From Octopus sinensis (taxonomy: Eukaryota): a stretch of DNA of 64,000 bases. Under the pieces are notes generated by a model. That model saw only the letters and a program-made list of their open reading frames with translations. It searched no databases and was not told the origin of the DNA. Below are positions 3,067 to 44,809 of this stretch, piece by piece. The position numbers and the translations under genes are program-made. Within the stretch, counting starts at the first letter, position 1, and every line of letters begins with the position of its first letter. Where the stretch lies: contig NC_043009.1 of assembly GCF_006345805.1 (NCBI RefSeq), forward strand, positions 30,256,001-30,320,000. Direction: 5' to 3'.

Positions 3067-6000
3067 GTAAACAAATAGGCGAGAGCGAATCATTATCATT
3101 TGACGCTTCTTACATCGTACGAATTTAGAAATTTCGAAAGGGAGTAGTGAAACAATTTATTTATTGTCTTTTTTCAACAATGGAGCTCGAAATAGATATG
3201 GCTATAATTAACAGTGTGTAAAGATAAGGTTAAAAAAGAATCATTTGGCTAGAAAATAATCAAAGTCTGCCCGTATGTTCATAGATGTTTGTTCGTGTCC
3301 TTTAGACAGCCTTGAGAGTTTTCGGAAGCTTTTTAAGGCAATAAATACACGCTATTATTTGTAGCTGCATCTACTTCGTTAGCAACAAATTATTGCATTA
3401 TCATTGGATGTTTCTTTCTCAGTAGCAGAAAGGGTCTCCCTCCTTCTCCTTCTCCCCCCTCTCTCTCTCTCTTTCTCTCAGTTGGATTAATTTTAAAGTT
3501 TATTTTCTTTCAGTAGTGCCTTTGTGCATCTTTGATCACGTGCATCCAGTAAAATTGGCGAAGAAAGAGTTTTACTTGTCAGAAGTAGAACACGAATACG
3601 GGCAGCCATATTGTATTTATCTAGAAATCTTTTCGCGTTAATGGAACCTTTGTTAGGGACATCACCATTTACCTCAATAAAAATGTATAAATCTTGTGCT
3701 AAAGAATGATTACGCAATATTCTAAAGCATAGTGGAATCAGTTTTCTAGTAATTTTTGTTTGTCTTATTCTAAATATTATTCTAAACATTATAATCTGTG
3801 GGAATTTGGCCAACTTTATTATACAAATTGAATGTTCTTTTATTCTCAGAAAAGGAGCTTTAATACTTGCTAGTTTCTCAAGATTTTATTCATTTAATGC
3901 AAATTTGATGAAGAAGCACGTTCTTTCAAGGAAGCAGGTGCTTGCCTTTAATTTATTTATGTCGTTCGCAGTTCCCATGATAGAGCCGCCCTGTAGCATT
4001 CACGTTATTTATCGTAAAGATGGCTACTAATTATCTTTAGGTTTGTTCGACAATCAATAAATTTCATATGGCTAATGGTGATATTGCAGTTGTGCAGCTT
4101 ATAATTATCTTATTTATGACTTTCATTGAAGTATTTTCCTGGCCGCAGATGATAAATAATATAGCTGATTTGATCCTGAATAAACCTGCACTTAAATCAT
4201 TTAATATGGATTAGGCGCTTCTTATTGTCTAGCTGAACAACACATATCTTTATGCTAATTGATGAACTTTCTAATCTTAATCTTAGCTAATTACCAAATG
4301 AAAGAATTATGATACCACAATATTTTACATCGACGCAGGTTTCCTGGGAGATATTTGTTTTTGCGTAATCCTTTGACAAGATCAAATAGAGTAATTACTC
4401 TCTTCTGTTACTTATCTTCATTAATTCCAAAGTTTAGAACACGTGTTGATATGGGCAATCCACTCCTCTGAACTCACAGTTACAAATCAGAACACTCTGG
4501 ACAATTATGCGATACCTTGAGAAAAGAATCTTATTGTAATATTAAGCTATCAACTATTTAAAATGTCTGTTGGCTAAATTCATTAAATTAATCCTTACTT
4601 CAGCGTGAAATTTGCTATCAGCATTTTATGTTAACTTGTTATATTGCTCATTGTTGAATTTAAGAGAGAAAATGATACTAAATTACGCAATATACTTCAG
4701 CTGTTTATGGGCAAAGTGACAGAAACTTCACCGTTGCTTCAAGGAATTCAATCCTCAAGTTCAGTAACAATGTGTATCGTTAAATGCACTTAAGAATTTA
4801 ATGCCCAGATTTCTTTCAGTCAATAATTCTCGGAATTGTTAACTTCAGCGGTATTTTAAGATATGCCGCTTCAGGTTTGTTCAAATAATTTTTTTTTTTT
4901 TTCTCCTTCTCCAGTTTTGTTTCGCAATATGACTGATTTACTTAAAGGTAAAAAGCTCAACGATTGCTAATTCAAGATATGAAGTTTGTTCAGTTAATTT
5001 TCTGAGTTTTACAGTTGATATTCTCCAAATCACAGGAGTATCAGAATATTGACGAAACAGTAATTCACCTCATTATTAGCAAGATGAATTCACTTAATCC
5101 CTATAATTACCATATTTACAATTTTATTGAAGTAGTTCCCCGATGGTATATGATAATTGATAAACACCGCTTAGCATCGGCGCTACATACATGATAATGC
5201 TACAAAGAGAATGAGCAGGAGCAAGAAGAGCAAGAGGAGCAGCAGAGGGAGGAGAATGGGTTGAGGAGGAGGAAGAGGGTTGAGGAGGAGGAAGTGGAGT
5301 TTGAGGAGGAGAGGAGTGGATGTGGGAACATCGATAACTGGAGAAGATGAGATCTATTCACTTCTTCGTATCGATAAACAACAAAAGCAGCTGCAGGGCT
5401 AATTCTGCTTAATGCAGCGGCCAGATATCGTCAAATTAAAGTCACACCCGTCCATAACATATACACTGTTTTATGTATCTCCAGACAAATTGGGAAACAA
5501 TAAAAGACAAGATGGCTGTCCTTTCTGTAATGGATTTTCTCAAAGATCTACTCCATCAATATGAAGCCAGGGTTAATCAGCAGTCACAGACTTGTCGTGA
5601 AATGGGACGCAGTTATTTTATACTCCTCTGTATTTTACAAACCGGTAAAGAGAACTGTTTACGCTAGTATCTAAAAACTCGTAAAACACAACATACTTTC
5701 TTTAAAAATGAAGAATGAACTGTACAAATTTGTCACAAGTATATACAAAGAGGAGATGGGCATAGCTGGAAGGCTTGTGACCGTAGATTTGCCAAATCAG
5801 TGCTGTCTTTACTTCTGACCTTGCTAATCAATAATAAGTTTATTTTAAAAGACCAACTTTGTTTGAAATCTTAAGACTGATTAGATATCGTATTCGTTTT
5901 AACAAAGGCTGTTCTTCATCTTTCTGACGTTTAAATAAGCGTTTTATTTATTTTGAAGAATTTCAATAAAAAAATTTCAAATTGTTTTCAATATATGACA

Positions 6001-10418: not shown

Positions 10419-10477
10419 TGTATGTATGTATGTATTTATATATGTATGTATTTATGTATGTATGCATGTATATATTC

Positions 10478-11290
10478 AATTCTGGCTAGAGAACTATGCC
10501 AATGAACTCACACATTGCATAAAAATAAAATTCGTAATAGAGAGGCTAAAATTCATCTTCGAGAATAAATACTTTGTCTTCAAAGACAACTTTTATCGAC
10601 AAAAATAGGTGATTGCGATGGGAATGAGAATGGACCGCTCTTTGCTAACCTATTTATGGGATATCTAGAAATCAGACTTTGTTACAAGATACTAGAAAAA
10701 TACGGCAACCCATTCTATCTCTACATAGAAAATAACTGGAAGAGGTACCTGGATAACTGTTTCATTCTTTGGCATGAAAGTATAGAGAGACTTAAAGAAT
10801 TTCAACCACTTGTAAATGAACTTGACGTAAACATTTAATTCACGATGGAATATAGCCATCAACGAAATAGAAACAGATGTAAACTATAAACCCACGGACT
10901 CCAAGCAATATCCCGTTCAACCTAGCAAAAAGGATTTGACTATTGTTTATAATACAAGCACCAGGGACACACGATTACATGAACTAAAGGATACACTCAT
11001 CTCCAGGAACTAGCCACCATCACTAATTGATATATGCTTTCAACGTGCCCTACAGCTCAACATACTCGAACTCAGACATCCCAAATTAAAGAAGGATTTA
11101 CAACCAAAAGCCGTACCGTACATCACAGACAACACTCTTAACAATGAAGCCTTCAACACTATCCTCCAAAGCATTTCCCTACTAAAAAGATACTACAGAA
11201 TGAATTTCATCCATCATACAGAGCAAAAGACAGACCAAATCTGTGAAAAGTCTCCTGACACAAGCCCGAATACGCTTAACAACCTCCTAC
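10478..11290 (+). mobile_element. Penelope-like element RT remnant
   Basis: FENKYFVFKDNFYRQ..IAMG..ANLFMGYLE..WKRYLDNCFILW..I*FTME..YKPTDSKQY..PFNLAKRI; frameshifts and stops. Confidence 0.88.
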
Positions 11291-14822: not shown

Positions 14823-14890
14823 TAATAATAATAATAAGTAATAACAAAAATTTACAACCATATTAGTTACATTAATAGTAATAACAAAAC

Positions 14891-14936
14891 ATGATCTTCT
14901 TCATGCTCAACACTACGGCTAGTGGTGCTACACATG

Positions 14937-15010
<74 letters not shown>

Positions 15011-15029
15011 ACTACTACTACTAGTAATT

Positions 15030-15069
<40 letters not shown>

Positions 15070-15964
15070 CAAACAAGAAATCATACCACCTAATAAACAT
15101 GAAGAAGAAGAAGAAGAAGATGAAGAAACAACAAAAGCTATAAAACAAATGAAATCCAAACTAAAAATAGAACAGCAACGAGCCATGATAAAACGATGGC
15201 AAGAAAAGCCCCTTCATGGTAAATACTGCACTAAACTAGACGCAAAAGAAATAGACAAAGAAAAATCCCAGCAATGGTTGAGAAGCTCAGGACTCAAAGC
15301 AGAAACAGAGGGATTTTTAATTGCAGCACAAGACCAAAGCCTCCCCACCAGAAGTTACCAAAAACATGTAATGAAAAGAAATATTACAAGTAACTGCAGA
15401 ATATGTGGAGATGGACAAGAAACAATAAATCATATTATCTCTAGCTGCCCAGTCCTGGCTAAGAAGGAATATATTCACAGACATGACAGAGTTGGAACCT
15501 ACATACATTGGAAGCTATGCCAACATTATGGAATAACAACAGAAAAAAGATGGTATAGGCACACACCAGAAAAGGTCACAGAAAACGAGAAAGCAACCAC
15601 ACTCTGGGATATGCCGATACACACAGATAGAGAAATTAAAGCCAACAGACCAGATATAGTTGTCAGAGACCATGAAGAAAAAAAATGCTTTCTAATTGAT
15701 GTATCAATACCGGCTGATGACAACGTGTCTCTAAAAGAAATGGAGAAACTCTCAAAATACAAAGACCTGGAAATAGAGGTAACTAGAATGTGGAATCTGA
15801 AAACAGAAACAATTCCTATCATAGTAGGTGCATTAGGCATGATAAAAAAATATTCAGACAAATACATAACAAAACCACCAGGACTTACAAACACATATAA
15901 CATACAGAAAATTGCACTACTAGGCACTGCACACATCCTACGCAGAACACTTTCCATACAATAA
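14891..15964 (+). CDS. Open frame: microsatellite-derived N-terminus fused to the C-terminal CCHC knuckle and restriction-like endonuclease of an R4/Dong LINE (5'-truncated, no RT)
   Basis: LHGKY, ETEGFLIAAQDQSLPT, CRIC..ETINHIISSC, RHD, RPDIVV..LIDVSIP..EKLSKY, QKIALLGTAHILR; uninterrupted frame. Confidence 0.6.
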
Positions 15965-43403: not shown

Positions 43404-43511
43404 GATAGATAGATAAACAACATTTCTTTTTGCAATTTCTATATTTTCAACTGCTTTATATATATGGTGGAAAACGAAACGTTTTCCAGTGTTTTCGGTA
43501 TGACGATATGA

Positions 43512-43965
43512 TATTGTGTCTAAAGCCAGCTAGAGACGACGATCTCTTGGGGCTATAAAGCTACAGAAACACCCCCTCCCCAATGTGGTTAGCCATGATA
43601 AGATGGCTTCTATACTTTATATTATCGAGCGATTACTGTTTCAATCTCATTCTGAGATATAATTATGCTTACTGTTTTCGACATCAGTGGCAGACGCCAC
43701 TAGAAAAACTTATATATTTGCAAAGCAGCCTTCACTTTCATCGCGACCTGGTGGTTACCCGTTGACAAGGGACAAAAATCCCGAAACTAGTTCGAGCGTA
43801 TCACTCAGGCTTGCGAGGAAGGGATGGCCTCCCTTTGCAAATACTCCAAGGTCACTGATATTGTGTCTAAAGCCAGCTAGAGACGAAGACCTCTTGGGGC
43901 TATAAAGCTACAGTAACACCCACTCCCCAATGTGGTTAGCCATGATAAGATGGCTTCTATACTTT
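43512..43965 (+). mobile_element. Retrozyme-like insertion: 347-nt unit with 111-bp terminal redundancy and 9-bp TSD
   Basis: Direct repeats 43509-43619 and 43856-43966 (4 mismatches); ACGATATGA at 43503-43511 and 43966-43974; central HHR. Confidence 0.8.
43741..43816 (+). ncRNA. Type I hammerhead ribozyme, U3:A8 core variant
   Basis: TTGACAA(43762-43768)-GGGA caaaaa TCCC-GAAA(43783-43786)-CTAG-TT^; extended stem I CCCG/CGAG, GTGGT/ATCAC, CCTG/CAGG, TCGCGA/TTGCGA. Confidence 0.75.
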
Positions 43966-44809
43966 ACGATATGAGAATGGTTTGATTGAATTTCGCCATT
44001 ATTCTCTAACCACTTCCTTGCTTTACTCAATCTATCTCCCGAATTCTCTGTCCTCTTCTCTCTGTCTTCCTCCTTCCACCCCTCTTACTTGTCTATGTCT
44101 CCTTGCCAGTCACCCATCCTCCTGCGTTGAACGTGTTATCTCCCCCTCTCTCTGTGTTTCTCCTGCCCTTCGCCCTCCCTCCTGTCTCTTTGCCTGTCAC
44201 CCATCGTCCTGTGTTAAACGCGTTATCTCTCTCTCCATCTCTCCACCCTCCCTTCCCTCTCTGTCCCCTATGCCGCCTTGCGCCTCACCTGTGGTAACAA
44301 AACGTGAAAGTGACAGTCAATATTTGCTGTAGTTATTTGTCTTTGATTAAACAATGTCTCTATGTATCTACTTCTCTTTCGACGTTATAAATCAGTCTTC
44401 TCTGAAAATACTGATAAACATTTAAAAACACAAAACGAATGCCACCTTCCTTTCTGTCAGCGTTCACTGTCTCTCTCACTCTCTCCATTTCTCTCTCACT
44501 TCCTCTACGACCCTCCTCTTTCTCTCGCTTTACCACTCACTTCAACTATACCTCCTCTACTTAACACCTTTCACCCAATAAGTTACGCATCTCCTTCGCT
44601 ATCCTTCATTTTGTGTGCTGGTGCCACGGAAAATATTCCTATACTGTGACACTTATAGAATATAGAAAGAAGTGTAAAACCGATAATTATATAATTCACC
44701 CGAAATATCTCAGTTACGCAAACGTAAACAGAATTACTATTTAGCCTTAAAATACATCGTACATATTCAAAGAAACTTCTTGGAGTTGTGTTATGGACCG
44801 TTCTTCTGG

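Follow-up and report, generated by a model that had tools for sequence, protein, structure and literature searches.

Metazoan non-LTR retrozymes have been described from coral, mussel and axolotl, with Penelope-like elements (PLEs) proposed as candidate mobilisers (PMC7229834). A later account treats retrozymes as PLE derivatives in 35 species, with no mollusc in the part of that text available to us; in Xenopus, 24 of 57 retrozyme families matched transposable elements, nearly all of them PLEs (bioRxiv 10.64898/2026.07.22.740005). PLEs leave partial tandems, an inverted 5′ copy and a one-sided tail (PMC8557442); the tail pattern has been attributed to two internal priming sites, and an anole PLE inserts in vitro without needing hammerhead cleavage (PMC11167929). 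Newt satellite 2 carries an snRNA-type Pol II promoter established experimentally (Coats et al. 1994, as cited in PMC2220036). Target-specific LINEs of the Tx1 clade include Tx1L (in the Tx1D transposon), Keno (in U2) and Tx1-Mar (in Mariner-N4) (PMC4494074, PMC4640811; target-specific LINEs are also treated in PMC8869645, and PMC6155905 is further related literature). In the giant squid, 235 Rfam hammerhead-1 matches were counted, with no analysis (PMC6962438). The main text of PMC7229834 names neither octopus nor cephalopods. Searching the literature outside Repbase and subscription papers, we found no report of an octopus or cephalopod hammerhead family, and a prior entry is possible.

The window analyzed here, 64,000 nt of Octopus sinensis DNA (contig NC_043009.1, positions 30,256,001 to 30,320,000), contains one insertion that an earlier note had proposed as a cephalopod retrozyme. 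We compared this copy with its relatives across the genome.

The window copy and its family

The features of the insertion, in window coordinates, are as follows.

43416–44140 (no strand assigned): older dispersed repeat interrupted by the element; paralogues 71–88% alike over the right flank
43503–43511 (+): left target-site duplication (TSD), 9 bp, of which the last 3 nt fit the element as well
43509–43619 (+): first 111-bp repeat, unit 1–111, beginning at the variable 5′ start of the window copy
43509–43855 (+): one monomer, 347 nt, compared with 357 nt for the family monomer
43591–43608 (+): hairpin 1, read from sequence, about 10–16 nt upstream of the short 3′-end site (unit 111–118)
43643–43659 (+): hairpin 2, in the "tail" between both 3′-end sites, about 7–15 nt before the long end (unit 158–166)
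43683–43688 (+): ATCAGT, a likely U1/U2-type proximal sequence element, which in the window copy lies 57 nt upstream of the predicted +1
43736–43756 (+): site duplicated by LINEs in other copies (unit 235–255), empty in the window copy; predicted +1 at 43740
43740–43815 (+): type I hammerhead with a long bulged stem I
43856–43966 (+): second 111-bp repeat, stopping at the family's short fixed 3′ end, the putative start of reverse transcription
43966–43974 (+): right TSD, 9 bp, single copy at empty paralogous sites

The direct repeats, 96% identical with 4 mismatches and a spacing of 347, were recovered exactly where the earlier note had placed them. The 9-bp duplication that it reported at the flanks is a genuine TSD, because empty paralogues of the interrupted repeat carry the 9-mer once. 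The search for such empty sites, which the note had proposed, yielded the exact 9-mer, once, in two of the 16 paralogues displayed (L244 and L246) and a variant differing by 1–2 bases, also once, in four more (L243, L245, L247 and L253). Retrozyme membership is associated with TSDs longer than 4 bp, a length that the window copy exceeds; in other copies the TSD is often unresolvable within (TA)n. No ORF of at least 120 aa lies within the element, in keeping with the reported lack of coding capacity.

Genome searches returned 1,640 candidates with the full monomer and 1,911 with unit 1–170. For each family search 40 candidates were scored, and every count given here describes best-scoring candidates, that is, young and long copies. 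Thirty full monomers are mostly 355–358 nt long and carry 3–24 substitutions relative to their commonest letters; by the same measure the window copy has lost 10 nt and carries 10 substitutions. The 347-nt unit of the earlier note thus holds as the spacing in the window copy, whereas the family monomer is 357 nt. Judged by sequence, the window copy is a truncated member of a dispersed, non-coding 357-nt hammerhead family with over a thousand candidate copies. Dimers and trimers occur (L003, L016), and the monomer falls within the tandem, multi-copy, non-coding class of 170–400 nt by which retrozymes are recognized. Together with the variable 5′ ends and the TSD, these copies bear out the proposal of a multi-copy non-LTR retrozyme moved in trans.

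The family resembles the metazoan retrozymes of PMC7229834 in its 170–400-nt tandem unit, type I hammerhead, absence of an ORF, low GC, long TSD and strongly self-paired fold. It differs from them in that the ends are mapped and are of PLE type, the core is U3·G8 or U3-A8 with a GUU triplet, and its RNA circles are a prediction. Two distant sister retrozyme families (L101–L107 and L109–L119) have the same pair of 3′ ends with a hairpin before each, and stem III palindromes of different sequence. At L004 and L015 the right flanks share, after a (TA)n run, one 1.3-kb repeat (93% alike).

Tandem units are 0–3 nt apart within one insertion and a mean of 15 apart between insertions. In 9 loci, minor variants recur in every repeat, also across opposite arms; in 4 they do not, these being the window copy, whose two repeats differ at a subfamily-diagnostic base, and likewise L014, L026 and L028. 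By this comparison one template per insertion is the rule, with a circle and a homogeneous multimer indistinguishable from these data.

Hammerhead and promoter motif

The type I hammerhead reported in the middle of the element is present, although its core (43762–43768) is non-canonical, with U3-A8. Stem II is formed by 43769–43772 and 43779–43782, GAAA occupies 43783–43786, stem III is a palindrome at 43786–43791, and cleavage is predicted after 43792. Of 26 parsed copies, 18 have U3·G8 and five, the window copy included, have U3-A8; the cleavage triplet is GUU in 23, GUC in two and another sequence in one. In older subfamilies, which are about 74% alike, the core is C3-G8 or U3-A8 and the triplet is GUC. 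At E ≤ 1, Rfam gave no match for the window copy; sister copies match Hammerhead_HH9 at 31 bits (E 2.6e-4), under the gathering score of 52. The U3-A8 variant is already known from PLEs, and a palindromic stem III marks dimer-active hammerheads (PMC4209133). Stem III is palindromic in every octopus subfamily examined, a feature shared with PLEs. Another young family (L372, L374, L375, L379 and L380), which bears GIY-YIG and includes several open frames of 781 aa, has a terminal hammerhead near 4400–4900 or 1354 with U3-A8, a palindromic stem III and a GUU or GUA triplet; such cores are therefore common in the O. sinensis genome.

Across eight subfamily rows, 93.9% of cells pair compared with 26–50% in slid controls, and 6 of 25 hammerhead pairs vary on both sides, pair 3–8 being seen as UA, UG and CG; the rows are kin to one another and the structure was drawn from the same rows, which makes this support rather than proof. 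The alignments indicate that the units contain a type I hammerhead whose structure compensatory change has maintained among subfamilies that differ by about 25%. The monomer fold beats shuffles (z −3.95), as does the circular fold of a sister copy (z −3.5, with 0 of 60 shuffles as good). Cleavage at a GUU triplet is slow. Ribozyme activity may be weak, given the U3·G8 core and GUU triplet of the young subfamily and the three stem I bases lost in the window copy. Among Xenopus retrozymes, eight of nine were without cleavage in vitro (bioRxiv 10.64898/2026.07.22.740005).

ATCAGT lies 57–60 nt upstream of unit 239 in 29 of 30 monomers. The same motif stands 57–61 nt upstream of U2 at 23 of 24 loci, the exception being a LINE-split gene, and at −56 to −59 of U1 at 22 of 25 loci, with a variant at that place in the other three. 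The chance rate at such spacing is 0.25% (19 of 7,712 mock sites). A chimeric locus, L145, reads in order the U2 promoter, U2 bases 1–14, retrozyme 239–255 (the first 17 bases, as a leader) and a LINE; since the leader starts at unit 239, the LINE RNA behind this locus likely began there. The retrozyme is likely transcribed from its own internal U1/U2-type Pol II promoter with a predicted +1 at unit 239, an assignment based on motif spacing and this one chimeric junction. A U6-type Pol III promoter, which a TATA-like stretch and a run of five T at unit 171–175 had brought into consideration, was rejected because U6 flanks carry another motif and U1/U2 flanks bear that of the unit. A tandem array of variant U6 genes (L205–L216, C1:141.9 Mb) has an upstream motif unlike that of U1/U2.

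In the 130 nt preceding each of 22 other hammerheads, PLE-associated or not, no ATCAGT-type motif was found; the octopus unit differs from these in having an snRNA-type motif of its own. It resembles newt satellite 2 in combining a hammerhead repeat with an internal snRNA-type promoter. The newt promoter is reported from experiment, whereas that of the octopus is assigned by motif and spacing only, the motif being the animal's own U1/U2 element.

Site-specific LINEs in the unit

When the family was masked and flanks were compared, three copies proved to be interrupted at unit 255 by one common sequence. A 1.4-kb neighbor common to three copies was considered as a PLE parent and rejected, as it turned out to be a LINE. 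The inserted LINE is 5.55 kb long and has ORF1 and ORF2, the latter an open 1,134-aa frame in L063. Pfam domains are a zinc knuckle in ORF1, just below the cut-off, and APE, RT and zf-RVT in ORF2. Its best relative of solved structure is human L1 ORF2 (E 1.8e-61), the nearest named relative of a LINE protein of this genome is from Argonauta hians (64%), and a protein-cluster atlas search returned generic RT-endonuclease clusters only.

A search with the LINE 3′ end gave 378 candidates, of which 30 were fetched. Twenty-eight continue into unit 235–237; of the remaining two, one runs into a full U2 gene (Rfam 183.6 bits) and one into 9 target bases alone. A second set of 20 places, reduced to 16 by dropping 4 repeats of earlier places, has the target in 15 and no LINE 3′ end in one. 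The LINE thus lies at the predicted start site of the retrozyme in 43 of the 46 copies examined, all best-scoring candidates, compared with the >20% of copies in one target that defines target specificity in PMC4494074. In long fetches, 9 of 12 have the unit on both LINE flanks with 235–255 duplicated. LINE insertion at unit 235–255 is site-specific, and the insertions are probably independent. These insertions and the promoter motif go beyond the earlier note. Two head-to-tail arrays, L061 (C22:28.41 Mb) and L062 (C6:92.14 Mb), contain two and three 5.55-kb LINEs with only the 21-bp target between them.

A 1.63-kb element (L064:6154–7780, − strand; 199 candidates) has a frameshifted ORF1-like region and a LINE-like end, and ORF2 is absent. 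It is best described as an ORF1-only, non-autonomous LINE derivative at the LINE's target site. It is followed by the hammerhead unit at 16 of 25 loci, by U2 at one, by a doubtful unit at one and by unrelated DNA at seven. Besides the unit itself, two distant sister families serve as its hosts. The idea that these hosts are unrelated was rejected, as they are distant homologues of the unit (scores 49–67 versus shuffle maxima of 30–35); they therefore offer no independent promoter evidence. At L327, L335, L045, L108, L332, L336 and L111, the same target holds a sister LINE about 82% alike and at least two 5′ ends of other elements. Elsewhere in the window, 219–2040 and 14885–15964 are other non-LTR fragments (endonuclease and RT pieces, and a zf-RVT-bearing C terminus), distinct from the site-specific LINE.

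Like Tx1-clade LINEs, the octopus LINE combines APE-RT, an ORF1 zinc knuckle, one fixed multicopy site, tandem insertions and a likely reliance on host transcription. Unlike them, it has as its targets a hammerhead retrozyme and the extreme 5′ end of U2, whereas the Keno site is internal to U2. Where we speak of "Tx1-like" or "Neptune-like", resemblance is meant rather than tree placement. Our search of the literature outside Repbase and subscription papers turned up no LINE that targets a hammerhead repeat, a retrozyme, a PLE derivative or an snRNA start.

Insertion ends, mobilization and competing readings

Among 58 outer 3′ ends from 37 distinct loci, 25 lie at unit 108–120, 24 at 156–170 and nine elsewhere; the two sites, about 45 nt apart, hold 49 of the 58 (P 3.5e-45 versus uniform), and the window copy ends at one of them (unit 111/112). 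A hairpin placed like hairpin 1 is also found in the two distant sister families. Head-to-head arms are present in 21 of the 37 loci, 12 of which pair a long with a short end. The 5′ ends are scattered round the unit, a heap at positions 1–3 being at least partly a query-edge effect. Many insertions are flanked by (TA)n or other AT-rich DNA, and none of the examined flanks showed a poly(A) tail. Of what the earlier note expected, multimers are borne out and the 5′ ends do vary; circularly permuted endpoints are not supported, the 3′ ends being fixed. Its "1.3 copies", taken as a circle read slightly more than once around, gives way to a fixed priming site with 5′ truncation; nor would one circle, read 1.3 times, be expected to leave the discordant diagnostic base of the window repeats.

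Two 3′ ends tens of nucleotides apart with a tail, 5′ truncation, partial tandems, an inverted 5′ arm and AT-rich targets are all features of PLEs, whereas the octopus unit lacks an ORF and its tail is about 45 nt rather than the reported 30–40 nt (PMC8557442, PMC11167929). An autonomous RT+GIY-YIG family of the same genome (784-aa frame) also has two 3′ ends about 40 nt apart, long and short inverted pairs, and a U3-A8 hammerhead. Of the two mobilizers that the earlier note had suggested, Penelope or LINE, the footprint supports the former and speaks against the latter: the retrozyme was probably copied and inserted by Penelope-like machinery. Three protein-led searches for a PLE parent, one of them with 5,029 GIY-YIG candidates of which 150 were scored, yielded autonomous-looking PLE families; among those sampled, no terminal repeat resembles the unit beyond shuffle level, a difference from the PLE-matching families of Xenopus. 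A decayed PLE fragment in the window (10474–11284, + strand) is 62–68% similar in amino acids to the 784-aa frame, which has 4,585 candidates genome-wide. A second abundant PLE-like family ending in GIY-YIG (L262–L291; 7,563 candidates) has no similarity to the unit.

Contigs from three runs of three studies, presumed by guess to be RNA, span the unit; one returns by 357 nt, as tandem DNA would too. A drop in depth over the promoter part is uninformative, since the large, probably DNA, run has it as well. One pass from 239 to the priming sites would yield no more than about 280 nt and leave out the promoter, so that a circle or multimer is required for full units.

On balance, and with moderate confidence, we favor the following account: the window holds a truncated copy of a 357-nt hammerhead family whose units are probably transcribed from an internal U1/U2-type promoter, probably cleaved and circularized by the ribozyme they carry, and probably reverse-transcribed and inserted by Penelope-like proteins, with LINEs at the predicted +1 in other copies. 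Pol II would initiate at unit 239 (43740), 59 nt past ATCAGT, and read across tandem units. Hammerheads would cleave 55 nt downstream, most likely as dimers because stem III is always palindromic, to give 357-nt monomers and circles. At an AT-rich nick, cDNA would start at unit ~115 or ~161, each right after a hairpin, proceed round the unit and stop at random, often with both target strands primed to yield the long and short head-to-head arms. The LINE, the ORF1-only element and further families enter at unit 235–255, where they may borrow the promoter and begin their own RNA at the retrozyme +1.

The same family, promoter and mobilization could instead involve a linear read-through multimer from tandem loci, with a weak or dispensable hammerhead and no circle. 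We regard this as unlikely but worth keeping in view: dimers and trimers exist, the anole PLE dispenses with cleavage in vitro (PMC11167929), four loci have discordant repeats, and the core is non-canonical with a GUU triplet. Against it stand the compensatory change that has kept the hammerhead, the circular fold far above shuffles, and the fact that most sampled loci have fewer than two units, which makes sources of long linear template look scarce. Random priming of a circle, possibly by a LINE RT, with both ends permuted, would suit the dispersed 5′ ends and the active-looking LINE physically associated with the family; it is largely refuted by the end map and highly improbable, as the 3′ ends are fixed, the inverted arms overlap in sequence, flanks are often (TA)n with no poly(A) tail seen, and the LINE lies within the unit, bounded by a duplication of its own. 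The terminal direct repeats and TSD of the window copy would suit a TRIM, or miniature LTR element, with LTRs of 111 bp; repeat length and 5′ ends vary among copies, multimers and inverted arms occur, and the chance of this reading is negligible. The note had likewise reported no LTR hallmarks.

It is also improbable that the LINE is a passenger, a LINE-in-retrozyme composite of single origin hitch-hiking on PLE machinery. Composites do terminate at the retrozyme's two 3′ sites, and L146 is 5′-truncated inside the LINE with no upstream unit, which makes some co-mobilization likely. Yet in L328 and L332, LINEs 98% like the young LINE lie in host units that match the young unit at only about 74%, and their duplications are of the host type; the 5′-truncated LINE of L334 has unit and duplication on either side; LINE–21 bp–LINE tandems make up 5 of the 30 fetched 3′ ends, mixed tandems of different element families occur at L326, L327, L335 and L337, and one LINE lies at U2. 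More tentatively, and with rather low confidence, three tiers of parasite might share one promoter: Penelope proteins would spread a ribozyme circle bearing a U1/U2-type promoter, and LINEs would be tethered to the snRNA transcription machinery instead of reading DNA sequence, the retrozyme supplying promoter, harmless landing site and occasional rides. Tethering would account for hits at the same spot in retrozyme families no more than 60–75% alike and, in U2, at its first base. Counting against promoter-guided targeting, the first six bases of U2 and of the young unit are identical, the LINE host families are homologous to one another, and no LINE end was found upstream of U1 (0 of 25 loci).

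In this new retrozyme family a PLE footprint is to be expected, the likely U1/U2-type promoter has one precedent, and dedicated site-specific LINEs have none that we found. The enzyme that moves retrozymes has so far been argued from co-occurrence and terminal-repeat similarity; the octopus family displays a Penelope footprint copy by copy, and its two fixed priming sites make an anole-type in vitro assay directly applicable. It also provides a likely promoter for an invertebrate retrozyme, known experimentally only in the newt. The LINE is a young, intact L1-type element that has one precise target outside genes, inserts mostly at full length and carries a leader derived from its host. As a natural site-specific integrator, it offers a case in which targeting by sequence can be weighed against targeting by promoter.
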